Positions 2,897 through 61,645 of a stretch of 64,000 nucleotides of DNA are shown in pieces (the stretch's first letter is position 1; the number at the start of each line of letters is the position of its first letter). A program made the position numbers and the translations under genes. The DNA lies in contig CAVZRV010000013.1 in NCBI GenBank assembly GCA_963777605.1, positions 96,001 through 160,000 on the forward strand, written 5' to 3'. The notes beneath the pieces were generated by a model that had not been told where the DNA came from, ran no database searches, and saw only the letters and a list, made by a program, of their open reading frames with translations. The DNA comes from an uncultured Acidobacteriota bacterium (GTDB taxonomy: Bacteria > Acidobacteriota > UBA6911 > RPQK01 > JAPXNP01).

Positions 2897-4541
2897 ATGA
2901 GTGACAATGCTTCGAAGTTGAGCCGCCGTGGATTTATTGCTGTCTCCTCGAGCGGGGTCCTGGTTGCGGGCCTGAGCGGGTGTGTAACGGTTGACCAGGA
3001 AACCGGATCCGAATCGGGAGGCGGGCAGTCCGACCGTTTTCAACTTAACGAACTATCGATTGCCGATCTCCACAAGGCGATGGACGAGGGAAGCCTGACC
3101 AGTCACGAGATCACCCGGCTATACCTGGACCGGATTGAGAAGATGGACCGGCGAGGGCCTGCCCTGCGGGCCGTCATCGAGGTGAATCCGGAGGCTCTCG
3201 AGATTGCTCAGAAGCTTGACAAGGAACGTAAGGACGGAAAGAAGCGGGGGCCGCTTCACGGCATTCCGGTCGTCCTCAAGGACAACATCGATACCGCCGA
3301 TCGAATGACGACGACAGCCGGTTCGCTCGCCCTTGAGGGGTCGATCCCGGCCCAGGATTCGTTTGTGGCCGCCCAACTCAGAAAGGCGGGCGCGATTCTG
3401 CTCGCCAAGGCCAATCTCAGCGAATGGGCGAACTTTCGATCCGACTACTCTTCGAGCGGCTGGAGCGGTCGGGGAGGGCAATGTCGCAACCCCTACGCCC
3501 TCGACCGAAATCCATGCGGTTCTAGTTCTGGGTCGGCGGTGGCGGCTTCGGCCAATCTTTGTGCTGGAGCCATCGGCACTGAAACCAACGGCTCGATCGT
3601 GTGTCCCTCCAATGCCAACGGGGTCGTCGGGCTGAAGCCGACCGTCGGCCTGGTGAGCCGGTCCGGCATTATTCCCATTTCGCACACCCAGGATACGGCC
3701 GGCCCGATTACCCGAACCGTGGCGGATGCCGCCACGATTCTGAGTGCCCTGGTCAGGGACCGACCCGCACGATCCGGCGACGGCCGCCAGCGAAGGCCAC
3801 TTCCAGCAGGACTACACTACCGCCCTCAAACGGGGAAGCCTGAAAGGTGCGCGAGTTGGGGTGGTTCGGCAGTACCTGGGATTCCTCCCCGCCGTTGACC
3901 GGCTCATGGAGGATGCGATGCGGGTCATGAAGGAACTCGGTGCCGAGATCGTCGATCCTGCCGACATCCCGACCAACCGCCAGTTCGGCCGACCGAGCTT
4001 CCAGGTTCTCCTGTATGAGTTCAAAGCCGACCTCAACGCCTATCTGGCCGGATTGGGAGAGAAGGCCCCGGTCCACAGCCTGGCGGAGTTGATTCAGTTC
4101 AACAACGAGCACGCAGACGAAGAGATGCCCTTTTTCGGCCAGGAACTCTTGATCCAGGCCGAGGCGAAAGGTGACCTGGCCAGCAAGGAGTATCTGGACG
4201 CCGTGGAGGCGGCCAAGCGCCTGGCGGGACCCGAGGGGATTGACAAGGTCATGGACGACAACAAACTCGACGTGCTGGTGGCGCCGACGGGTGGACCTGC
4301 CTGGAAGACCGATCACATCACAGGGGACCATTTCCTGGGCGGGAGCTCGGGTCCGGCCGCGGTAGCGGGATACCCGAACCTATCAGTCCCTGCCGGCTTC
4401 GTCAGCGGGTTGCCGATCGGGATCTCGTTCTTTGGCCGGGCCTGGAGCGAAGCGAAACTGATCGGGTATGCCTATGACTTTGAGCAGGAGACGAAACTTC
4501 GCCTCCCGCCCCAGTTCATCCCTTCCCTGGAAACCGTGTAG
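2897..4541 (+). CDS. Amidase signature family amidase, Tat/lipoprotein signal; frameshift near 3750-3760 joins ORFs 2897-3898 and 3744-4541
   Basis: SRRGFI Tat motif and LSGC lipobox; GPLHGIPVVLKDNI, GSSSGSAVA, GTETNGSIVCPS and QDTAGPITRTVADAA; second ORF supplies the C-terminal YPNLSVPAG...GLPIGISFFG. Confidence 0.9.
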
Positions 4542-7124
4542 CTACGGTTTGACTCGCGAGACTCGACTTCGCCGCCCCTGCTGGTCGAAGGTTGCGAGAA
4601 TCACCTCGCCGCTGACCGGGATCGGGTCTTCGTATGCCGGTGATTCCGGGGTGGGAGCCTTCCCGTCAAGCGTATAGCGGATGGTGAGGCCGGGGAATGC
4701 CACGTTGGCAGTCAAGAGTCCATCCGTGATGGAGGCTCCGGGAGGCGGAAGCCGGTAGGCCACTCCTCCGTGCCAGTAGTCGAGGCGCGGAAGCTCTCGT
4801 CGGCCAACCAGGTTGGCAAAGCGATTCCAGGCCTGCTCCCGCATCTCCAAAGCTCTTTTCAGGTTGGGGGTTTCTGCCCACTGCGGCGGCTGCGCCCAGG
4901 CCCGCTCGGAAAGTCCCATCAACTTGGGAAGGGCGAGGTACTCGGTGATCTCGTCGGTCTTTTGGTTTTCGGACCAGAGCTGTCCCTGAAGTCCGAGGAT
5001 GTTCGACCGGCCGTTGGAACTGAGCCGGGTGGCGTCCCGGTATCTCGAGGGTTCGATCGGATTGCCCATGACGTCCCTTTCAGCACCCCGGTAAATGTCG
5101 AAAGGAATCAGCTCCCAGGCGCTGCGGGTCTCTACGAAACCGGCCCAGTAGTATCCCGGCTCCTGGGGATGCTTGCCGTAAGCCAGGTCGAAGTAGAGGT
5201 TGCTTGCATTGGAGAGAACGACGCGGTATCCGGCATTCGCAAGCTCGTAGGCATTCTGCTCTCCGCCCGATCCCCAAACGCTGTTCCAAACGTAGGCGAC
5301 GAAGTTCCGGTTCACGAATTTCGGGTTGGGCTTCCTGGATGCGGAATCGTCGTGACCTGAACTGGTCAGGCCCACTTCCTCCCACCCGGCGAGGGTCAGT
5401 CCGCGGGATGAGAGAATGTCGTCGAGTCGACCGAGGAAATAGGTTGTCAGCGGCCCCGGACCAGAGCTCCCGGTTTGCTCTTCGAACGCCTGGCAGCGAG
5501 GAGAACCTTCCCAGACGCCGGCCGGCACCTCATCCCCACCGACGTGGACAGAGTGAAGCGGCACCCCGGCTTCAAGGTACATGCCGCGAACCTCGTCGAT
5601 CACCTTTTCCAGGAATGCATAGGTAGAGTCCTGGCAGACGTTGACCACGTTGTCATTCCATCCCTGCACTGACCGGTAGACCGACTGGTCCTCGGGATCG
5701 TTGAGCAGGTAGCGGTCCGCCTCTGAGTCAGAGCCCTCCGCCATGAGCCGGTCGTGGCGCACCTGCATCGACTTGATTGCCGCCCGGGCGTGGCCGGGGA
5801 CGTCGATTTCGGGAATTACCTCGATGTGTCGGCTGGCTGCGTAGCGCAGGATGTCGATGAACTCCGTCCGGGAGTAGAAACCCGAGCCGGAGGAAGCCGA
5901 TGGGTCGGGGTTCGGGCCTGAACCGAAGGACGGATAGAGGCGGTCCCTTTCGTCCAGGGTGTGTCCCCGGTGTCCTCCGACGTTGGTGAGTTCGGGCAGT
6001 CCCGGGATCTCAAGGCGCCAGCCTTCGTCGTCGGTGATGTGGAAATGGAATCGATTCAGCTTGTAGAAAGCCATCAGATCGAGAAGTCGCTTGACCTCGT
6101 CTGCTTTTCTGAAGTTCCGCGCCACGTCGAGGTGGAGTCCGCGATAGGCGAACCGCGGGCTGTCGAGCACCTCCACTTCTCCAACTTCAATGGAACCTCC
6201 CTCACGAGCCCATGCGGAAATCGGGAACCACGCGCGCAGCGTCTGGATCCCGCAAAGGACCCCTGCAGGCGACGCGCCCGATATCGACACGCCATTCTCC
6301 GCGGAAATGCTGAGACGATAGGCGTCCGGAGAAGGCTGCCCTTCCGGCTCGAGTTCCAGGCAGATCCGGTTGGGCCCGGTCTCGGGACTGCTTTCCTCCA
6401 CGATGTCCGGGCTGGCTCCCAGCAGGTCCGATATCGCCTCTGCCAGGTAGGAGGCTTCGAACGCGAGCCCGGGCTGGTAGAGAAGAAGAAAGTCGGAGGT
6501 CAAGTCCAGTTGTCCGGTGCCGGGGCGAAGGGAGACTGGAGTCGGGACGATTCCCCGAATTTCGGTTTCCGGCATGAGGGAAAGCGGGGCGTTGGCCTGG
6601 AAGAGCACGTCGGGGGTCTGAACCGGCACGACATCGTTCTTCGCCCGGGACGTCTGGTCCGGTCCCTCGAATGCGCCGATCTCCTCCGATCCGATCTCTT
6701 GCGGAGCGGCATCGCCGTCGTACACGATGTAGAAGCCGGCCGGGGCGACGGAGTCATTGATCACCGATGCCTCGCCGTCGAAGCGAACGGTGATCCACTC
6801 ACCGGGTTCGAGGGGAGAGAAGTCGTCTCCGGGACGGAGCCGGTAAAAGTCTCCGTTCACGTGTTCGATCCGGACCGGACCCTTGACCGAGTCCTTGATA
6901 ATCACTCGTGCGAAGTTGAAGTAGATTGCCCAGCCTCCGGTCGGGAGGCTTGCCTGCCCATGATTGGAGAGCACCAGTTCAGACGAAAATCCGTCGGGAG
7001 CAAAATTAGTGATCAAGCTCCAGCGGGCTCCCAGGTCATTGCCGGAGGGGTGATCCTTCGTCGAACGACAGGACATCAGGCCAACCATACAGCAACATGC
7101 CACCAGCGTGATCCCTTTCAGCAT
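4542..7124 (-). CDS. Beta-N-acetylhexosaminidase (GH20, chitobiase-type), lipoprotein
   Basis: DSPRFAYRGLHLDVARNF, HFHITDDEGWR, IPEIDVPGH, HVGGDEVP catalytic motif and GLQGQLWSE; LMSC lipobox. Confidence 0.92.
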   Translation of the reverse strand: MLKGITLVACCCMVGLMSCRSTKDHPSGNDLGARWSLITNFAPDGFSSELVLSNHGQASLPTGGWAIYFNFARVIIKDSVKGPVRIEHVNGDFYRLRPGDDFSPLEPGEWITVRFDGEASVINDSVAPAGFYIVYDGDAAPQEIGSEEIGAFEGPDQTSRAKNDVVPVQTPDVLFQANAPLSLMPETEIRGIVPTPVSLRPGTGQLDLTSDFLLLYQPGLAFEASYLAEAISDLLGASPDIVEESSPETGPNRICLELEPEGQPSPDAYRLSISAENGVSISGASPAGVLCGIQTLRAWFPISAWAREGGSIEVGEVEVLDSPRFAYRGLHLDVARNFRKADEVKRLLDLMAFYKLNRFHFHITDDEGWRLEIPGLPELTNVGGHRGHTLDERDRLYPSFGSGPNPDPSASSGSGFYSRTEFIDILRYAASRHIEVIPEIDVPGHARAAIKSMQVRHDRLMAEGSDSEADRYLLNDPEDQSVYRSVQGWNDNVVNVCQDSTYAFLEKVIDEVRGMYLEAGVPLHSVHVGGDEVPAGVWEGSPRCQAFEEQTGSSGPGPLTTYFLGRLDDILSSRGLTLAGWEEVGLTSSGHDDSASRKPNPKFVNRNFVAYVWNSVWGSGGEQNAYELANAGYRVVLSNASNLYFDLAYGKHPQEPGYYWAGFVETRSAWELIPFDIYRGAERDVMGNPIEPSRYRDATRLSSNGRSNILGLQGQLWSENQKTDEITEYLALPKLMGLSERAWAQPPQWAETPNLKRALEMREQAWNRFANLVGRRELPRLDYWHGGVAYRLPPPGASITDGLLTANVAFPGLTIRYTLDGKAPTPESPAYEDPIPVSGEVILATFDQQGRRSRVSRVKP

Positions 7125-18315: not shown

Positions 18316-18436
18316 GTGGGCAACCTCCTCGGGATCAAGTTGGCGGAAAACTATACCCCAGACAAAGGAATAGCCCAACCGGGTTTCCCCGGTCGGGCTG
18401 GGAGTCTCAAGTGGCTCTGAGGAGCGCTCGTGGCTC

Positions 18437-20467
18437 CTAGTGAGGCCGCTCTCGCGGGGGGCGAGGAGCCGAACTGGGCCTGCTTGGTGCGGGCCGGCTC
18501 GGCATCGGCGTTGACCTTTGATAGCTGGGTCTCGATGGCGATGGTCGGGACATGGTCGAAGGCCGGCTGATCGACGGGCTCGGCCGGCTTGCCGGGGACG
18601 GCCGGCTGATCGATGGCGACACCGATCGGCTCGGGCGCTCGGGCCGCGTGGAACGGTAGCTCGGCGTTGACCGGGAACTCGGAGTTGACCACCAGCGCGA
18701 GGAAGAGCGATTCGGTGACACGGTCGATCGAGGGACCGCCGGTGTGGAACGGGCGGTCGATGGAGGTGTCACCATCTCTCGAGTTGGGTAACGGTACGGT
18801 TCAATCGTGTTGCTGCGGCTCGAGCTCGGACGTGCGTCTGGAGTGGAGTATGTGAAACCCGAACGATCCTGTGATCGATTTGAGAACGTATTTCGTTCCG
18901 GCACCGGAGGCCTGGTCGTACTTCGTTGCGGCACGGCAGGCCTGGTCGTATTCGATCCTGGTCGAACCGTTTCGGGAGTTCTACTGGGTACCGTTCTCGA
19001 TCGCACAGCCGGAGCGATGTCGGGGGAGCGGGCCACGGACCGTCCACTCACGCCGCCGCCGCGCGAGTTACCCGGGTTTGTCTGCACCGGCGAGCGTCCC
19101 CCGGTAGCCCGGCTTTCCGGGATGCTGCGGGTCGTCGTGGGCGGACGTACATAAGAACGGTCGGTGTTTCCCCGGGTCGATCCGCGCTCCGTGAATGAAG
19201 AGGCCACGCCGTTCGGCGGAGTCCTTCCCACGGTGCCGCGATCACCGGAGACCGCCCGGTTCTGGCCACGGGTGAAGCTGTAATTGCGGAGGTTGTCGGG
19301 GAGCCCGGTGCGAACCTCGCGGCTAAACTCGGAGGGGATCCGGTTGAGAGCAACCTGGTTGACTCTGGTTCGGCTGAAGTCGTTGGAACGCACCAGCGTC
19401 AAGCCTCTTCGCGAAGCATTGTTGATGATCGTCGTGTTGTTGATGATCGTTGTGTTGTTGGAGTTCCAGTTGCTGCGGGGATACCAACCCACGTAGCCGC
19501 CCGAGTGGTAGAAGTTAACGGGCGCAGCGCTCCAGTGGTTGAATCCGCCTGGGAGCCAGCACCAGCGGGAGTTGTAGTATCTCCAGGCCCCGTAGTGGTA
19601 GGGGAGGTAGCCCCAGGGTTCATTGCTCATCCAGGTCCAGCCCCATCCGAGCGAGAAGTCCACCCAGAAACCGTTGCGGAACGGAACCCACCCGACCGAC
19701 ACGTTCGGAACCCAAACTGTTCCGTAGGTCGGGTAGTTGACCCAGGTTCCATAGTAGTCAAGGTCGTAGACTCCCGGGTAGTAGACACCGCCGACGTGGG
19801 CAACCGAACGGCTCGAAACCATGCGGGCGTCACGCCGGGAGCTCCACACATCAAAGGAGTCCTCCGAGTAGCCGTAGCTGACGTTGACGACCGTACCCTG
19901 GGTGGAATCGATCAGGGCCCGCTGGTCGTTCTCGATCCTCTGAGTACCCTGGGATCCGTCAAAGTCGGCTCTGCCCTTGCGGACAACGACTTCGATGGCC
20001 CCGTTGGAATCGAGACCGATGCGATACAGACCTTTCTTGTTGATGTAAACGGGACCGGCGGGAGTATAGATCCGGAAGTTTTCGCTGTCGTTCACACGCA
20101 GGATCACGGCACCGGTGTGCAGTTCCAGCACCGTTTCCTTGCCGTCAACCTGGACGAAGGCCACGTCGGTCTCCGGTCCAAGTCTGAGAAAGTTCTGCTT
20201 CCCGAAATCGACTTCAACTCGTGAGTCGGCCTGGGAGAAAATTCGGTCCCCGTTTAGAAGCGGGAGGTTCACGGTTACTTCGTCCCAATCCACGTTGCCG
20301 GCAGGCTCGTAGGCACCACGGCCGTCCAGGTAGCTGATCCGCGGAGGGTAGTAATCAGCCGCCAGCACCCCCGCCTGCAGCCCAAAAAAGACGAGCAGCA
20401 GGAAAATCGGCACCGGCAAATGGAATCGAGACAAGGACGTTTTGTTTTTCATTGTCTTGCTCCTCAT
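18437..20467 (-). CDS. FecR plus DUF6600 secreted protein with long Ser/Arg/Pro-rich tail
   Basis: RISYLDG, NLPLLNGDRI, LDYYGTW, GWVPFRNGFW and EPWGYLPYHYGAW; low-complexity C-terminal ~280 aa. Confidence 0.8.
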   Translation of the reverse strand: MRSKTMKNKTSLSRFHLPVPIFLLLVFFGLQAGVLAADYYPPRISYLDGRGAYEPAGNVDWDEVTVNLPLLNGDRIFSQADSRVEVDFGKQNFLRLGPETDVAFVQVDGKETVLELHTGAVILRVNDSENFRIYTPAGPVYINKKGLYRIGLDSNGAIEVVVRKGRADFDGSQGTQRIENDQRALIDSTQGTVVNVSYGYSEDSFDVWSSRRDARMVSSRSVAHVGGVYYPGVYDLDYYGTWVNYPTYGTVWVPNVSVGWVPFRNGFWVDFSLGWGWTWMSNEPWGYLPYHYGAWRYYNSRWCWLPGGFNHWSAAPVNFYHSGGYVGWYPRSNWNSNNTTIINNTTIINNASRRGLTLVRSNDFSRTRVNQVALNRIPSEFSREVRTGLPDNLRNYSFTRGQNRAVSGDRGTVGRTPPNGVASSFTERGSTRGNTDRSYVRPPTTTRSIPESRATGGRSPVQTNPGNSRGGGVSGRSVARSPDIAPAVRSRTVPSRTPETVRPGSNTTRPAVPQRSTTRPPVPERNTFSNRSQDRSGFTYSTPDARPSSSRSNTIEPYRYPTREMVTPPSTARSTPAVPRSTVSPNRSSSRWWSTPSSRSTPSYRSTRPERPSRSVSPSISRPSPASRPSPSISRPSTMSRPSPSRPSYQRSTPMPSRPAPSRPSSAPRPPRERPH

Positions 20468-43394: not shown

Positions 43395-43738
43395 GATCAG
43401 CGCCGGAGGCACAGCGGAATGATGGATTAGCACCGGAGGCACTGCCAAAATTGGTGGAATCAGCACCGGAGGTGCGCCCGAAAATAGCCCAGGGTTTCAA
43501 CCCTGGGTCCGGGGGCAGCAATCGAGGAGAAAGTCCCGGAGGGACGACCGAACCGTCATGTTTGCTACCCCTCCTGCGACCAACCCCTCATGGACCTGCT
43601 CCTCGTGGAACCGGGAATCGAAAGGGACGACGTAACGCGTACCTCGGCCGTCCCTCCGGGACTGGGGACGGGGTAATCGGCCGACGATGACCCAGGGTTG
43701 AAACTTGGGCTATTTTCGATACGTCACTCCGGGACTCC
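43395..43738. repeat. REP/REPIN-like inverted-repeat element
   Basis: AAAATAGCCCAGGGTTTCAACCCTGGGTC (43481-43509) and AGTCCCGGAGGGACG are mirrored by CGTCCCTCCGGGACT and GACCCAGGGTTGAAACTTGGGCTATTTT (43689-43716); preceded by three degenerate AGC(A/G)CCGGAGG units. Confidence 0.75.
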
Positions 43739-45494: not shown

Positions 45495-45835
45495 ATGCAA
45501 CTAGATACACTCGACAAGAAACTCAACGACATCTACGCCGGCCGAGTGGTCCGCAAGGACCTCCTCCACCGGGTTAAAAAGGGCACTAACATTCCGTCTT
45601 TCGTACTGGAGTTCCTGCTGGCCCGATATTGCGCGAGCGACGATCCGGACGAGATCCAGGCAGGGATCGATGCCGTCTTCGAGACGCTGCAGAAGCACTA
45701 CGTCCGTCCGGACGAGTCGAACAAGGCCCAGTCCCACGTCCAGCAGAAGGGGAAGCACAAGTACATCGACAAGCTCCAGGTCCGCTGCGTGGAGCGGGAG
45801 AAACGCCACTGGGCCGAGATGGAGAACTTCGACTC
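45495..45835 (+). pseudogene. brxL: N-terminal fragment of BREX Lon-like protein BrxL
   Basis: LDKKLNDIYAGRVVRKDL...GTNIPSFVLEFLLARYCASDD...YVRPDE...IDK; similarity ends after ~112 aa and no ATPase or protease domain follows. Confidence 0.75.
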
Positions 45836-45990
45836 CGCAGTTGGAGGGCGACAAATCACCTTACGCCGAAGGTCATCGTCAGGCTTTCCGCACCAAAGGC
45901 CCTTCAAAGCGCGCGAAGGAACTGATTCGTCGGGTCAAAGCAGCAAAAGCGAAGAAATACTGAGCCGGCGACCGCACTCGGCAGCTGGTA

Positions 45991-46440
45991 CTAGGACTTG
46001 GCCGGCTTGAAATTCTCCGGGATTGTGCCGAGCAACCCGAGAAGGTTTTCAAGTGTTCTTGCCATCCATTCGTTCAGTTCGGGCCAGGTTTCAAGCCTGA
46101 AGATCTGGGATGGTCGTCTCAGGCTGAGGAGGCTTCCTTTGCTGTCTTTGGGGAGCCAGACGACTTCACCGAGCGGAGAGAGTTGCTCTTTGAGCTGACT
46201 GCGAAGCCGATCGTCGATCCGGTCGAACCAGGATTCAGCGCCTGGCCCTGTCAGGCGCACCCAGATTCCGGAGGTGCCGCTGAGCACGTTCCAGAGCACC
46301 AGCCGAATCGGACCCGGACCGGGGATCTCCTTTCCAATGCTTCGATTAGAGGGTTTGCCGAGCTTGATAGAAGGGTCCCGGTTGGCCATGTACTCGTGGA
46401 ACTGCGTCCAGAACCGCTCATGGAGGGCCGCGGCGTTGAC
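45991..46440 (-). CDS. DUF4268-like domain protein, probably truncated
   Basis: RFWTQFHEYM...KPS...W...ETWPELNEWM pattern; no clear start. Confidence 0.5.
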   Translation of the reverse strand, partial: VNAAALHERFWTQFHEYMANRDPSIKLGKPSNRSIGKEIPGPGPIRLVLWNVLSGTSGIWVRLTGPGAESWFDRIDDRLRSQLKEQLSPLGEVVWLPKDSKGSLLSLRRPSQIFRLETWPELNEWMARTLENLLGLLGTIPENFKPAKS

Positions 46441-49158: not shown

Positions 49159-50168
49159 ATGAGCAAACGGCAATTGGAACCGATCGAACGACTCTCCTAC
49201 GAAGCCACAAGGCTGTTTCGAGAGCACCCACCGGTGATTCGCGACCGCAACAAGCAGGTCGTTTTCGAAATTGCCTGCCCGGAAGGATCGCGGCACCGTG
49301 GAGAGATTGTCTACTCCCGTTGGATATCGATGCCGGTTCCGGCCCAAATGGATCCAGTGCGGGCCGTTTCACGAGTTGAGGCCAGCAAGTCAATTTACGA
49401 TTACGGACCGGTTGCTCCTGGCGCGGTGGAGTGGCATGTAAACTTTGCCGATTCGGAGCTGTTCGGCTTTTACGCGACAGGACTTTTTGCCCAGGACGAA
49501 CTGCAGGTGGCCGAGCATCCGATCCTGGGCTCCCTTAAGGAGGCTCTCCGGGCGTCGAATCGACCAAGACCTCACAGTCGAGGTGGGACGCCCGACCCCG
49601 ATTCTCATCTCGGGTGCGGAGCGGCGCTGCCGGGTGGCGATCGACCCGAATCCTGACGAGGGGCGCCCGTTTGGACTCTATGGCAACCGGTTCGCGCAGG
49701 CCCCCGAGGACGCCGTTCGCGGGGCGACTGCCCGGATCGATCCGCCGACGGTCAGCAACCTGGTCTGCATTGCCGCCCCGGCCTGTGGCTTGGGGAACTA
49801 CTCGCGCGAGCAGATTCAGTTCATTATGGAGACGGCCTACACGGGTTTTCGGGCGGCCGTTCTGGAATCGGGGCGAGCTCACGGAGACGAACGACCGGTG
49901 GTTGTCCACAGCGGGCTTCTGGGGTTGCGGCGCCTTCGGGGGGAACCGGGTGCTGATGGCTACTCCTCCAGGTTCTTGCCGCCGAAGCTGCTGGACTGTG
50001 AGCCGACTTGTCTTTCACACGGTCGATGCTGCGGGGTCCGCGAAACTGGCGGAGGCCTTGGAACTGATTCAGTCGCGGCCGGCGACCGAACGCGTCGAAA
50101 ATACCGAGGCTCTGGTTGACTGGATTCTCGGTCACGGCTTCCGGTGGGGAATCAGCGACGGCAATTGA
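49159..50168 (+). CDS. Poly(ADP-ribose) glycohydrolase, eukaryotic-type PARG catalytic domain; about 4 frameshifts
   Basis: WHVNFAD..LFG....LFAQDELQ (QEE-loop equivalent), TAYTGF, GFWGCGAFGGN and LLQVLAA, spread across three frames. Confidence 0.75.
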
Positions 50169-50236
50169 GTAGCCGCACAAAGCCACGCCGGGAATGCTGA
50201 AGGGGGCCCGAACATTACCAGGTCTCAGCGAGTCGT

Positions 50237-51004
50237 TCAGCCAACTGTCGAATGCAGGCGGGAACCATTCCGATGATTGAGTTGGCCGGCCGGGATTTTG
50301 TCTGCTCCCCATCGGGCCCCTCCGATGGAGCCCACCAGTACCGGGCAGTAATTGGCCGGCCCGGCAAACTCCAGGGAGCTTTCCAGTGCCTTCTCGAAGC
50401 TTTCGGCCCGATCGAGGAAATGAACGGCGGCGGCGAAGACCTGCGGAGCAAAGCCACCCCTTGAGAGTTCATTCCTCGGGAATCCGAGACGCCCGCCGGG
50501 CAAGGCCACAGGAGGGATCCTTCCCAACGCAACTCCCCAGTCGAATCCCCGGATCAGTCGTCGACACAGTTCGGCAACTGCGGCCGAGACCTCTCCGGCA
50601 ATCGGCGAGTAATGCGTCAGTCGCGCTTCCTCCCGGGCAAAATCGGCAACCTCGGTATCTGTGAGGAATCCGGCTGCAGCCAGGACGGAGGCCCGGTGGG
50701 CGGGGTTGCACCCTCCGGTCAGGCCGCCCAGATCGTCGTCCGTTCGTCGTGCTGCCTCGACACGATCGATACCCTGTTCGAGATAATGGAAGACCCGGGT
50801 GAACACCTCCCCGGTGTCGAAGGCATCGGTATGCCACCAGTCGAGGTACCGGTTGAACAGGTCGTCCGGATCAAAAGCGCTTCGGCTCAGGAGAGTCTTG
50901 GCGACGAACGACGCCATTCGGATCGGCCCGCCGTTTCGGTCTCCGGCAGCAAGTCCAAGAAGCAAGCCCTGGGCGCGGTTTCGGTATTCATCGCGAAGAT
51001 TCAT
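50237..51004 (-). CDS. ADP-ribosylglycohydrolase (ARH/DraG) family, degenerate variant
   Basis: RAQGLLLGLAAGD, FDPDDLFNRYLDW, N.A.R, ARLTHYSP and VGSIGGARWG...IP. Confidence 0.8.
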   Translation of the reverse strand: MNLRDEYRNRAQGLLLGLAAGDRNGGPIRMASFVAKTLLSRSAFDPDDLFNRYLDWWHTDAFDTGEVFTRVFHYLEQGIDRVEAARRTDDDLGGLTGGCNPAHRASVLAAAGFLTDTEVADFAREEARLTHYSPIAGEVSAAVAELCRRLIRGFDWGVALGRIPPVALPGGRLGFPRNELSRGGFAPQVFAAAVHFLDRAESFEKALESSLEFAGPANYCPVLVGSIGGARWGADKIPAGQLNHRNGSRLHSTVG

Positions 51005-51039
51005 CGGAAAAGGATAACCTGGAAGGTCGCGCTACGGTG

Positions 51040-51071
51040 AACCTGGGTTGAAGATGCTTAACCTGGGTTGA
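51040..51071. promoter_or_regulatory. Tandem putative enhancer (UAS) sites for the sigma54 activator
   Basis: AACCTGGGTTGA repeated exactly at 51040 and 51060 (20-bp period, near-palindromic), ~110-140 bp upstream of the predicted start. Confidence 0.55.
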
Positions 51072-51153
51072 TGACTTCGTATATGTTTTTGGAGATGATC
51101 GACTCGATAGGTAATCTATTAAATGCAATGACTTAGCCGAACATCGCATCGAG

Positions 51154-51170
51154 TTGGCATGGCTCCTGCA
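51154..51170 (+). promoter_or_regulatory. Sigma54 (-24/-12) promoter
   Basis: TTGGCATGGCTCCTGCA = GG-N10-GC; AT-rich IHF-like tract at ~51112-51136; next to a bEBP gene. Confidence 0.75.
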
Positions 51171-51180
51171 GTAGATGCTC

Positions 51181-51263
51181 TCGGGTCCGGGTGAGAGCGG
51201 CGGTTACCCCCAGAAACCATGCGGGAGCTGACCTCCTGCAGGCCGCTTTCTGCCCGGGCCGGA
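51181..51263 (+). ncRNA. Putative structured RNA / 5' leader
   Basis: Starts at the predicted +1; 5' TCGGGTCCGGGTGAGAGCGGC pairs with 3' GCCGCTTTCTGCCCGGGCCGGA and encloses hairpins GGTT/AACC and GCGGGAG/CTCCTGC. Confidence 0.5.
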
Positions 51264-51276
51264 ATGGAGGAGTGTC

Positions 51277-52227
51277 ATGCAGTTTCCAAAATCAGTCTTG
51301 AATCCGTTGACCCTGGGCGAGCCGATGACAAGTGATGCGCTCACGGTCTATCCCGTCCTGGGTGCTTCCGAAAGTGCCATCCAGCTGTTCGATCTCGACG
51401 AGGCCCTTGCGCAGGGTTGGATCGAGATCGGCGAGGTTTCTGAATCGGGAAACGTCCCCGAATTAGGCGTGATCAACCAGTCGCCCCATCGGGTCATCCT
51501 CTTTGACGGGGAAGAGCTCGTCGGGGCCAAGCAGAACCGGATCGTCAATGTCACGATCGTGGTCGCTCCCTTTGCCAGGCTGAGGATCCCGGTGTCGTGC
51601 GTGGAGCAGGGACGCTGGCGGTGGCACAGCCGTCACTTCGACGCGGGCGAATTTGCCTACCCGAGCCTGCGACGGGACAAGTTCGAGCGCGTCAGTCAGA
51701 ACTTGGAGATGCGGCAGGGATTTGCCGCCGACCAGGGGATGATCTGGCACGACATTGCCGCCAAGTCCGCCCGCATGGGCGTTCACAGCGAAACCGGCTC
51801 GATGCGGGACATCGGGGCGCGGCATTTCATTGATGACCGCCAGATCCAGAAGGAGATCGCGCACCAGCCCCGCCAGGTCGGCTATCTCGCCTTCATCCGG
51901 GACGGCTTCGCCGGTGGCGACATCTTCTCGTCGTCTGAAATCTCGGCGCGGAAATTTTACAAGCTGGTCCGGACATATTACCTGGACTCGCGCGATCCTG
52001 AAGCCGAGTTCCGCCCGGTCCCGGCCGATGAAGTGATGGGTCGCATCGGGAGCAGCGCGGTCGAACCGGTCGAGAGCATCGGGGAGGGAAGTGACTTCCG
52101 ATTCCGTCAGCGCGACATCCAGGGATCGCTGACCCAGGTCGGTGAGATACTGGTCCACCTGGCGGTTTTCCCCGTTGTCCGGGATGGCTTCCGGCGGCCG
52201 GCACGACCGCATTTCCGGGTTGACTGA
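51277..52227 (+). CDS. ARPP-1 / DUF6569 family protein
   Basis: RBS GGAGGAG; LDEAL, EVSESGNVPEL, DGEELVGAKQNRIVN, IPVSCVEQGRW and DQGMIW. Confidence 0.75.
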   Translation: MQFPKSVLNPLTLGEPMTSDALTVYPVLGASESAIQLFDLDEALAQGWIEIGEVSESGNVPELGVINQSPHRVILFDGEELVGAKQNRIVNVTIVVAPFARLRIPVSCVEQGRWRWHSRHFDAGEFAYPSLRRDKFERVSQNLEMRQGFAADQGMIWHDIAAKSARMGVHSETGSMRDIGARHFIDDRQIQKEIAHQPRQVGYLAFIRDGFAGGDIFSSSEISARKFYKLVRTYYLDSRDPEAEFRPVPADEVMGRIGSSAVEPVESIGEGSDFRFRQRDIQGSLTQVGEILVHLAVFPVVRDGFRRPARPHFRVD

Positions 52228-52245
52228 AACCGAAATTCGCCATAG

Positions 52246-52292
52246 CGTTCCCGGACGAGCCCCTTCAGATCAGCGGAGGGGCCCGGGAGCGC
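52246..52292 (+). other. GC-rich intergenic hairpin without U-tract
   Basis: GCGTTCCCGG...GCCCCTT / GAGGGGC CCGGGAGCGC. Confidence 0.45.
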
Positions 52293-52311
52293 TCAGGGAA
52301 AGGATTTGGAA

Positions 52312-53916
52312 ATGCCACGGACTGCACAAGGAACACTGCTCACCTTCACCGGGTTCCATGACCCCTATTCCGACGGACCCGTCGAAGGAAGCCGCCAGCC
52401 GGGCCCGATTCTGAGCCTGCTCGGAGAGCGCTCGTTTCGCCGGGTCATCCTGTTTTCAACCCCGTCCACCGTGGAAGTGACCGAAAAGACGAGGGAAGCC
52501 ATTGCCGAAGAAGAGCCGGATGTACAAGTCGCGGTTCGGCATCTCGAGCTGCCCGATCCGACCGACTATTCGTCCATTCTCCAAGAACTGCGTCGAAGCC
52601 TTCGGGATCTTGCCGCCTGGAAGCTGGGAGACGTCTTTATTGCCACGGCCTCCGGCACCCCTCAGATGCACGCCTGCTGGATCCTGCTCGTGACGTCCGG
52701 GGAACTGCCGGGTCGCCTCCTTCACGTTCGCCCACCCCGGTTCGTCAGCCGCGACGCACCCATGGTTACGGAAGTCGATCTCTCGGAGCCGGAGTTCTCC
52801 CCTCTGGTGCTCCGGGAGAGCAGCCATTTCCGTGACGTCGGCGCCGATGAACTCGACATGGAGGAGCCGTTTATGTCGGCGTTGGCCCTGCCGAGCGCAC
52901 CTTCGATTGAGCGGTCTCGCGTAGACCGGGTGATCGAAGCCACCTCGCGGCCCGAACCTGACTTGGCGGCAATTTGCGAGCAGGAAGGGATCGTCGGGGA
53001 TGATCCCGGAATGATCGATGCCGTGAGGCGGGCGGTGACCGTTGCGCCTTACGATGAGCCGGTTCTCATTTTCGGCGAAAACGGAACCGGCAAGGAGTTG
53101 ATTGCCAGGCTGATCCACCGGACGAGCCATCGTTCGGGAGGCCCCCTGGTTTCGGTGAATTGTTCGGCGATTCCGGAGGACCTGGCCGAGAGCATCCTGT
53201 TCGGACACAAGAAAGGTTCGTTTACCGGAGCCATTCAGGATGAGCAGGGGAAATTTCGGTTGGCCAATGGAGGCACGCTCTTTCTGGACGAGGTTGGAGA
53301 GCTTTCCTTTGCGATTCAGGCCAAGTTACTGAAGGCGGTTGAATATCAGGTAATTGAACCGGTGGGGGAAGGTCGAGAAAGCACAGTCGATATCCGAATT
53401 GTGACGGCGACGAACCGAAACCTGTGGGATATGGTCGGGTCTGGATCGTTCCGTAAGGACCTCTACTATCGGCTGGTCGGGGCGCTGGTTGAGGTGCCGC
53501 CGCTTCGATCACGTCGCAGTGATATCAGCAAGCTGGCGATTCATTTCCTGGAGGCGTTCTCACGACGGTACCGGACGAGGCGTCAGTTTACTACCGCGGC
53601 GTTGCGTCGCCTGCAACATCACGATTGGCCGGGCAATGTCCGCGAGCTCGGGCACGTGGTTCGGGCGGCCGCGATGCTGGCCCACAGCGGGAAGATCGAA
53701 GCCGACGACATCGAACTGCTGGCCCGAAAGCCCGACCACGATCTTCCGGAACCACACGACGGTTTTTCGGTCGAGAGGTATCTGGCCGAGGTCCGCCGCA
53801 AACTGTTCGAGCGGGCTCTGGAAATCAGTCAAGGCAACCAGGCCGCCGCGGCACGCCTGCTCGGCGTCAGCGGAGCCGCGGTGTCCAAGTTCGTGAACAA
53901 GGAACGGCCCGCGTAA
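52312..53916 (+). CDS. RtcR-like sigma54-dependent activator (CARF-type N-domain, AAA+, Fis HTH)
   Basis: LLTFTGFHDPY, DPTDY and SGTPQMHACW N-domain; GENGTGKE, ESILFGHKKGSFTGA, LFLDEVGEL, FRKDLYYRL, WPGNVREL and NQAAAARLLG. Confidence 0.88.
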   Translation: MPRTAQGTLLTFTGFHDPYSDGPVEGSRQPGPILSLLGERSFRRVILFSTPSTVEVTEKTREAIAEEEPDVQVAVRHLELPDPTDYSSILQELRRSLRDLAAWKLGDVFIATASGTPQMHACWILLVTSGELPGRLLHVRPPRFVSRDAPMVTEVDLSEPEFSPLVLRESSHFRDVGADELDMEEPFMSALALPSAPSIERSRVDRVIEATSRPEPDLAAICEQEGIVGDDPGMIDAVRRAVTVAPYDEPVLIFGENGTGKELIARLIHRTSHRSGGPLVSVNCSAIPEDLAESILFGHKKGSFTGAIQDEQGKFRLANGGTLFLDEVGELSFAIQAKLLKAVEYQVIEPVGEGRESTVDIRIVTATNRNLWDMVGSGSFRKDLYYRLVGALVEVPPLRSRRSDISKLAIHFLEAFSRRYRTRRQFTTAALRRLQHHDWPGNVRELGHVVRAAAMLAHSGKIEADDIELLARKPDHDLPEPHDGFSVERYLAEVRRKLFERALEISQGNQAAAARLLGVSGAAVSKFVNKERPA

Positions 53917-61100: not shown

Positions 61101-61190
<90 letters not shown>

Positions 61191-61223
61191 ACAACCGTCA
61201 TATACATCCCCGCATCCGGGATA

Positions 61224-61316
61224 CGGAGGAGGTGGGATTCGAACCCACGTGCCAAGCTCATCACCTGACAACCCGATTTCGAGTCGGGCCCGTTACGACC
61301 ACTTCGGTACTCCTCC
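61224..61316 (-). tRNA. tRNA-Ser(CGA)
   Basis: GGAGGAG acceptor, CCCGA-CTCGAAA-TCGGG anticodon arm, long variable arm, GGTTCGAATCC; CCA not encoded. Confidence 0.95.
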
Positions 61317-61542
61317 GCACTCAGCCTGGAAGCATAGCATTAAAGCCTTCTGACGGGGCCAAGTCAAGCGGGCCGGGGGATTGGGAGCACTGGAAGAAAG
61401 GGATGAAGGTGAGGGACTCGAAGTCTTCAGGAATGGGACAATTTGACGAGCGCTGCATATCCAGGGCGCCCACGTTCCTCCAAATCCGAAACCTTCCAAC
61501 CCCGGGCAAATCTGGTATAGTCTCCACTGGTTTATTTCTTGT

Positions 61543-61645
61543 CAGGTTTCGGGCCCTGTGCAACGGTCCCCCCGAACCATGTCAGGTCCGGAAGGAAGCA
61601 GCATTAAGGGGACCCGATCGTGTGCCGCAGGTAACCCGAAGCCTG
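61543..61645 (+). ncRNA. ffs: Signal recognition particle RNA (4.5S)
   Basis: GTCAGGTCCGGAAGGAAGCAGC helix-8 motif, terminal stem CAGGTTTCGGG/CCCGAAGCCTG, located directly upstream of dnaX. Confidence 0.95.

Follow-up and report, generated by a model that had tools for sequence, protein, structure and literature searches.

The window, by which we mean the whole 64,000-nt stretch of DNA that was analysed, contains an ARPP-1 gene followed on the same strand by the gene for an RtcR-like activator, with a divergent ADP-ribosylglycohydrolase gene on the far side of their promoter. A stable RNA fold occupies the leader of the ARPP-1 message and a second hairpin lies beyond the ARPP-1 stop codon. 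The features of the locus are, in order of position:

50237..51004, minus strand: ARG gene (ADP-ribosylglycohydrolase, 255 aa), divergent; Pfam PF03747, E 6.9e-24
51040-51051 and 51060-51071, no strand assigned: tandem direct copies of AACCTGGGTTGA, a probable enhancer (UAS), from reading the sequence
51155..51170, plus strand: sigma-54 promoter TGGCATGGCTCCTGCA, GG-N10-GC, score 19.5/21.5 with simple consensus weights
51181..51263, plus strand: 83-nt three-way-junction fold, from folding, strand and conservation
51265..51288, plus strand: small Shine-Dalgarno (SD) hairpin, in which GGAGG pairs with codons 3-4 (UUUCC) and the AUG lies in the loop
51266-51272, plus strand: GGAGGAG, the ribosome-binding site (RBS) of ARPP-1
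51277..52227, plus strand: ARPP-1 (DUF6569) gene, 316 aa, ATG at 51277; Pfam PF20208, E 7.3e-77
52236..52300, plus strand: second hairpin, downstream of the ARPP-1 stop codon and ahead of the RtcR-like gene, −41 kcal/mol
52306..53916, plus strand: RtcR-like activator gene; PF06956, PF00158, PF25601, PF02954

The promoter was called against the sigma-54 consensus, which is GG-N10-GC with TGGCA/TGCA elements, and an AT-rich spacer separates it from the AACCTGGGTTGA repeats. No sigma-70-like promoter was found in 50900-52400. With the promoter, the tandem upstream repeats and an AAA+ activator encoded within the operon all present, sigma-54 dependence of the transcript is predicted from sequence. 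The activator has a CARF-type N-terminal domain (PF06956, 38.2 bits against a cut-off of 23.1), followed by a sigma-54 AAA+ domain (PF00158, E 4.6e-62), PF25601 and an HTH domain (PF02954, HTH_8). The in-frame ATG at 52312 is a more likely start for its gene than 52306. This activator presumably binds the tandem AACCTGGGTTGA repeats. The pair of repeats is the sole such pair in the 6.7-Mb genome and the activator is the genome's only match to PF06956, so the regulator is probably dedicated to this locus, its own gene included; that is, it probably controls this single locus and switches on its own gene. Two further observations concern the neighbouring ARG gene. A weaker sigma-54-like site (51124-51139, minus strand) faces it, with a good −12 and a poor −24 element, and scores at chance level. 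A near-perfect long hairpin (50298-50380, minus strand, −44.8 kcal/mol) lies within the ARG reading frame, towards its 3′ end.

An earlier note on this DNA had described a structured RNA of about 83 nt filling the leader between the predicted +1 and the RBS, with a closing stem of about 20 bp that contains G-U pairs and a bulge and encloses two small hairpins. Folding bore out each part of this description. The MFE of 51181-51263 on the plus strand is −51.0 kcal/mol, and the centroid structure is the same as the MFE structure. Dinucleotide shuffles of the same stretch averaged −35.65 (sd 3.4), which gives a z of −4.51, and 0/200 shuffles were as stable. The closing helix (51181-51201/51242-51263) comprises 2 + 9 + 9 = 20 bp, with one G/G mismatch, one bulged U and three G-U pairs. 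Within it, hairpin 1 (51202-51218) is weak, having 4 bp and a 9-nt loop, and hairpin 2 (51220-51240) has 8 bp, one of them a G-U pair, and a 5-nt loop. Almost every pair of the closing helix and of hairpin 2 has a pair probability of at least 0.9. The fold begins at the predicted +1 and its 3′ edge lies 2 nt upstream of GGAGGAG, so that it spans the gap from promoter to RBS.

The stability of this leader is exceptional both within the window and among comparable leaders. Among 12,784 overlapping 83-nt windows covering both strands of the 64 kb (mean −24.1, sd 6.0) it ranked first, and the runner-up regions that were checked (around 1651-1763 and 18371-18653) both overlap long open reading frames. 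It also ranked first among 66 leaders found genome-wide by the combination of sigma-54 motif, SD and open reading frame, at −51 against a mean of −23.5 (sd 7.8), the next most stable reaching −39.3. Such folding is therefore no general habit of sigma-54 transcripts in this genome. When the same 96 nt were folded on either strand, the plus strand gave −51.8 and the reverse complement −37.0. The leader fold is real, and it is an RNA-level feature of the plus strand.

We compared the leader with known classes of RNA. ARAGORN found 0 tRNA or tmRNA genes in 50000-53000, and no model of the tRNA clan in Rfam matched the 161-nt stretch around the leader at E ≤ 10. The Rfam comparison that the earlier note had proposed returned no family: the best matches to the 161 nt were miRNA hairpin models at E 0.49 and 15.5 bits, against gathering scores of 58-74. 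The equivalent 151-nt stretch of the orthologous locus in genome G010, described below, likewise matched only microRNA-hairpin models (E 0.27), the scores for the two stretches being 15-19 bits, and an Rfam scan of 10 kb gave no relevant family. The genome, which is 96.7% complete, had 0 matches to the Ro/TROVE gene (PF05731) in a search in which positive controls were detected, and its rtcB lies on another contig. A tRNA, a Y RNA, a known riboswitch and a ribozyme are thus out by ARAGORN, Rfam and the absent Ro gene, and the earlier statement that the RNA is not a standard tRNA or YrlA stands. Terminator-like sites numbered 0 in 50900-52400; the helix is followed by GGAAUGGAGGAG with no U-tract, and an intrinsic terminator or attenuator was rejected since no U-run follows the hairpin. 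The leader is single copy in the genome, with 1 match by DNA search and 1 strong match by covariance model, which eliminates a dispersed repeat (REP/MITE) or mobile element.

How much of the helix the message contains depends on where transcription starts. From the geometry of the sigma-54 promoter we infer a +1 near 51181. For a predicted start anywhere in 51178-51184 the helix still forms, with 0-5 nt unpaired at the 5′ end. A start upstream of 51178 would allow three extra pairs, of CUC with the GAG of the SD (RNAalifold), and according to the folding model a start well downstream of 51181 would leave the helix unable to form.

The sole close orthologue that could be assessed is locus L004 of G010, whose ARPP-1 protein is 67% identical. 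The sigma-54 promoter of G010, TGGCACGAAGCCTGCA, lies at the same distance from the fold as in the window, and the leader has the same architecture, with hairpin 2 at 41-57/59 from the predicted +1 in both. The AACCTGGGTTGA motif also occurs upstream of the G010 promoter, but in inverted orientation. The 7 nt between promoter and fold, TGCTCTC (51174-51180; L004 1372-1378), are identical in the two genomes. The MFE structure of the G010 leader has an alternative upper pairing; the long-stem fold is 0.7 kcal above it and makes up about 0.6 of the ensemble. A conserved upstream open reading frame was considered and rejected, the ATG within the window's leader being without a counterpart in G010.

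Conservation between the two loci is concentrated in the lower stem. Fourfold degenerate sites are identical at 42/111 positions (38%), i.e. saturated, and the spacer between promoter and enhancer at 34/95 (36%), whereas the arms of the lower stem are each identical at 14/17 (82%). The promoter itself is identical at 13/17 positions and the leader interior at 17/49. Seventeen leader pairs are unchanged, 5 have changed on one side, all in a wobble-compatible manner, 6 have changed on both sides yet still pair, and 8 have been lost at helix ends and in hairpin 1. This pattern indicates selection on the plus-strand RNA helix, although two sequences are not statistical proof: with n = 2 carriers there can be no statistical covariation test, and common descent alone accounts for some of the resemblance. 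The helix is kept while loops and junction vary from one leader to the other, as expected if the helix counts as such and not as part of a ligand pocket. Function seems to reside in the lower closing helix, which is conserved in sequence. Its 82% arm conservation exceeds what plain protection of a 5′ end would need, and this hints at a specific partner, either a protein or an RNase.

The region upstream of promoter and leader differs between the two genomes, with a PARG gene in G010 in place of the divergent ARG gene of the window. In G010 (L191, G010:C2) the PARG gene, of the macro-fold type (PF05028, E 2.8e-13), lies at 3600-4598 on the same strand as the leader. Whether the upstream gene encodes PARG or ARG, its presence ties the ARPP-1 module to ADP-ribose removal. 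The RtcR-like gene of G010 is read in two overlapping frames (L191 5920-6930 and 6858-7520), reflecting a frameshift or an assembly error.

Two smaller structures accompany the leader. The SD hairpin, which abuts the big helix, is predicted in both the window and G010 when the first 30 coding nucleotides are included. With 5′ ends at or after the predicted +1, the mean probability that the SD is unpaired was 0.29-0.34 in the window and 0.01-0.06 in G010. The hairpin uses the minor Phe codon UUU in both genomes, UUU making up 30% of Phe codons genome-wide. These predictions give a faint suggestion that the hairpin sequesters the SD. If transcription starts at 51181 or later, the SD has no predicted alternative partner within the fold. 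The second hairpin (52236-52300) has a z of −4.70, with 0/200 shuffles as stable, and is not a U-tract terminator. Its counterpart in G010 (L004 about 2436-2500) has 21 predicted pairs, of which 7 show one-sided changes, 2 show two-sided changes and 0 are broken, and the 15-nt flank TTCGCCATAGCGTTC is identical in the two genomes. The intergenic region of a third genome, G006, is likewise strongly structured. Genes for RNase III (rnc) and RNase E/G are present in the genome.

We then considered how widely the leader and its gene are distributed. Counting the genome itself, close ARPP-1 relatives occur in 3/16 genomes of the family, 3/76 of the order and 3/137 of the class. In phylum samples, counted in the same way, they occur in 4/401 genomes, and in 1/401 at completeness of at least 98, with no further close relative. 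The close relatives other than the genome itself are those of G010 and G006, and in G006 the contig ends at ARPP-1 residue 83; a search of that assembly for the missing piece did not find it. A single ARPP-1 protein as query against genome contigs gave no loci. An alignment of 25 close homologues gave at least 80 plus at least 80 loci, all of them at most 48% identical among the matches listed, and the same alignment gave no loci on viral contigs. Closer ARPP-1 proteins come from metagenomes (P0003-P0018, 50-77% identity). The names carried by homologous proteins assign the organism to the Acidobacteriota. One other, P0124, is an over-long reading frame call whose 65-aa N-terminal extension is rich in Lys, Glu, Arg and Asp; these have purine-rich codons, which argues against a GC-rich self-complementary stem there, and P0124 was not used as evidence.

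A covariance model was built from the leaders of the window and G010, which it scored at 113.5 and 105.7 bits, respectively; on the minus strand of G010 the score was 22.3. A search of 148 other related genomes, drawn from the family, the order, the class and part of the phylum, gave a best match at an E of 0.006 per genome. Weak matches were seen in 19 other genomes, and the top five came without a comparable fold or promoter/RBS context and were treated as chance. Against 175 other ARPP-1 loci among the matches listed, the model found 0 at E ≤ 0.01, 20 of the loci having been run with filters off. We also folded the 100 nt upstream of 159 ARPP-1 loci among the matches listed. The mean z was −0.65, against −0.22 for a coding control, and loci at z ≤ −3 numbered 8 upstream and 2 in the control. 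A structured leader common to the ARPP-1 family was rejected, given upstream regions barely above the coding control and 0/175 loci matching the model. Upstream regions at or below −45 kcal were found at 5/159 of the listed loci, one of which is the orthologue L004. The earlier note had expected a functional RNA to fold better than shuffled sequence and to have conserved structure upstream of homologues. The first expectation held by a wide margin and the second held only in the sister genus.

The association of ARPP-1 with an RtcR-like activator extends further than the fold does. Among the matches listed, ARPP-1 adjoins an RtcR-like gene only in the window, G010, G006, L016 (G045:C532) and the metagenome contig L074; at L106 the sole match was to the AAA+ domain, and it lies farther from ARPP-1. 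L016 and L074 belong to more distant lineages and have the activator divergent to ARPP-1, and so the pairing recurs across lineages. Their sigma-54 promoters end 28 and 41 nt before the ARPP-1 ATG, which implies leaders of roughly 15-30 nt, too short to hold the fold. The fold is thus dispensable for the RtcR/ARPP-1 system as such. It is an addition within one acidobacterial family, not a general component of RtcR/ARPP-1 loci. Some distant ARPP-1 loci have palindromes upstream that are probably repressor operators: GGCTCA-N5-TGAGCC occurs 100-150 nt upstream of ARPP-1 in L096, L127, L133 and L142, which are mostly proteobacterial, and TGTCA/TGACA palindromes occur upstream in L114, L143, L165 and L175.

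Taken together, the fold, its strand specificity, the conservation pattern, the promoter/RBS geometry and the second hairpin are the observations on which our interpretation is built. The explanation we favour, and to which we would give about an even chance of being right, is that of an mRNA leader specific to this lineage and acting in cis, which protects or processes the 5′ end of the message and limits its translation. The RtcR-like activator, bound to the tandem upstream repeats, would fire the sigma-54 promoter, and the nascent RNA would immediately fold into a 20-bp helix that includes its own 5′ end or lies no more than 0-3 nt from it. Flush with the terminus, such a helix should shield the message from 5′-end-dependent decay of the RNase E/G type. 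Alternatively, a helix of about two turns could provide a defined site for RNase III or for a protein. The adjoining small hairpin would tie the SD to codons 3-4 and thereby throttle ARPP-1 translation, and the second hairpin, past the ARPP-1 stop codon, would bracket the cistron so that the effector message is stabilised or expressed differently from that of the regulator gene. Each of these steps of decay, processing and translation is our inference. Post-transcriptional brakes and stabilisers would make sense in an operon that activates itself. Among the readings that the earlier note had listed, a cis-regulatory leader fits best. Its ligand precursor for the CARF domain and its decoy were both weakened by the absence of the fold from L016 and L074 and by the model's 0/175, which together mean that the fold is not general to RtcR/ARPP-1.

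An unlikely alternative, on our estimate, is that the leader acts as a switch, riboswitch-like or operated by a protein, in which a protein or a ligand such as an ADP-ribose or NAD derivative opens or closes the SD hairpin. An ADP/NAD-sensing riboswitch class is known from Acidobacteria, and this counts in favour of a switch. The three-way junction does adjoin a partly sequestered SD, and the two near-isoenergetic folds of G010, at roughly 0.6/0.4 of the ensemble, are what a switch might look like. The domains encoded in the operon further suggest a concern with ADP-ribose chemistry, in agreement with the available part of PMC9503650. However, neither leader geometry nor conservation is of the expected kind. 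The SD lies outside the big helix and, for starts at or after 51181, has no predicted alternative partner in it. A junction and loops that vary while the helix is conserved are the opposite of the usual riboswitch pattern, and no relevant Rfam family, riboswitches included, matched the 161 nt at E ≤ 10 above miRNA noise.

It is also unlikely that the fold is released from the message, perhaps through RNase III cleavage of the closing helix, and lives on as an independent RNA of some 80 nt acting in trans or as a sensor. As such it could act as a decoy for an RNA-targeting nuclease or ADP-ribosyltransferase, or be the substrate of one, or it could supply the CARF ligand in a feedback loop. Being very stable and compact, with its ends paired, the fold would last as a free molecule, the retained sequence of the lower helix points to a specific partner, and self-priming is conceivable in an operon that holds its own activator. 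The precedent is RtcR itself: according to the available part of PMC7790460, its CARF domain binds RNA fragments, namely 5′ tRNA halves with a 2′,3′-cyclic phosphate, and the Salmonella rsr-yrlBA-rtcBA operon is RtcR-regulated and carries Y RNAs. The earlier note's statement that RtcR regulons can include Y RNAs is therefore correct. Nevertheless, the short leaders of L016 and L074 mean that the fold cannot be a general CARF signal. The RNA has no terminator or defined 3′ end and runs into the SD, and conservation is lacking in its loops and junction, the parts with which a decoy would imitate another RNA. It has no tRNA-like or Y-RNA-like features, the genome is without a Ro gene, and the fold was found neither elsewhere in the genome nor in the 148 other related genomes.

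That the fold has no selected function, being a GC-rich intergenic hairpin shared through recent common ancestry, we regard as improbable. The carriers are only two related genomes, GC-rich genomes often fold stably, and 5/159 of the listed ARPP-1 upstream regions also reach −45 kcal. Yet silent sites and spacer are saturated at 38% and 36% while the stem arms remain at 82%, compensatory changes are present, and the leader is the most extreme of the 12,784 windows and of the 66 sigma-54 leader candidates.

More improbable again is a reading in which the leader, perhaps together with the intercistronic hairpin, would be bait. A phage enzyme would cut or ADP-ribosylate it, the product would be the CARF ligand, and the operon would activate itself. 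If true, such an RNA-baited, CARF-gated sigma-54 circuit would differ from the tRNA-fragment sensing known of RtcR. Finally, a feature of the DNA (a pair of inverted sites for a protein, downstream of the promoter, or a cruciform, with the RNA fold a by-product) is very improbable: the arms do form a sequence-conserved inverted repeat (14/17 each), but they are about 45 bp apart, the G-U pairs count as mismatches both in DNA and on the opposite strand (−51.8 vs −37.0), the single changes of the lower stem are all wobble-compatible on the plus strand only, and the upper stem and hairpin 2 still pair despite sequence change.

The cis-acting leader that we favour has parallels among well-studied bacterial messages. 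The E. coli ompA leader is a 5′-terminal stabilising stem-loop. The leader described here shares with stem-loops of that type a stable helix at or near the 5′ end (in our case predicted), upstream of the RBS and in cis; it differs in being much larger, with 83 nt, a three-way junction and a 20-bp helix, and in having a helix of conserved sequence. The pnp and rnc leaders are hairpins processed by RNase III. In them too a 5′ UTR helix spans about two turns, contains a bulge or mismatch and governs what becomes of the message; rnc is present in this genome, and the leader is a candidate substrate for cleavage. No autoregulatory logic is known for the ARPP-1 leader. Intercistronic hairpins, including those of the REP type, give segmental mRNA stability within operons such as malEFG and puf. 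The hairpin at 52236-52300 resembles them as a stable structure after the first cistron without a U-tract, and together with the leader it brackets ARPP-1. Unlike REP-type hairpins, it is single-copy and not part of a dispersed repeat family.

Shared with the Y RNA and YrlA of RtcR-controlled rsr-yrlBA-rtcBA operons are a structured RNA with a long terminal helix and a sigma-54 promoter under an RtcR-type CARF activator, as far as the available part of PMC7790460 describes the latter. Here there is no Ro/TROVE protein and no tRNA-like module or T-loop, and the RNA is continuous with an mRNA, whereas the Y RNA is a separate gene. The operon here encodes ARPP-1, in contrast to the RtcB and RtcA of rsr-yrlBA-rtcBA.

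ARPP-1 systems are predicted counter-measures against ADP-ribosylation, and ARG/ARPP systems were tied to ADP-ribose removal in a prediction of Iyer et al. 2022, in the available part of that paper (PMC9503650). The linkage of ARPP-1 to an ADP-ribose hydrolase, ARG in the window and PARG in G010, agrees with the ARG-centred systems of that source. The ARPP systems in the same available part have Nudix or WYL repressors, whereas the system here has an RtcR-like activator. The term RtcR has 0 occurrences in the text of PMC9503650, and its section 3.8, on ARG-centred systems with ARPP, describes no RNA element. Our search of the literature found no account of an RtcR-linked ARPP-1 operon or of its leader, although the supplements of PMC9503650 may list ARPP neighbourhoods linked to CARF or sigma-54.

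Given these comparisons, the leader is best filed as a real, conserved, structured 5′ mRNA leader, unmatched in Rfam, in an uncommon sigma-54/RtcR-like setting of ARPP-1. ARPP-1 is wired here to an RtcR-type CARF activator and sigma-54, and in one acidobacterial family two conserved, very stable RNA structures flank the effector gene. Should they govern how long the message lasts, how it is processed or how well it is translated, they would contribute both to the silence of a self-activating defence operon and to its later expression. They are also clean experimental handles for the operon, and the leader would add a new candidate motif to the RNAs of Acidobacteria. With two genomes known to carry it, its general importance is limited unless more members are found.

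Several other features were observed in the surroundings. Acido-Lenti-1 RNA (53.6 bits) lies at 43462-43507 on the minus strand, a few kb upstream. A short open reading frame at 45495-46010 on the plus strand encodes only the N-terminal domain of the BREX protein BrxL (PF20442, E 6.3e-34). Together, the Acido-Lenti-1 RNA and the BrxL fragment suggest a neighbourhood of defence or mobile elements. Near 61 kb, two tRNAs and an SRP RNA lie within 61104-61644.
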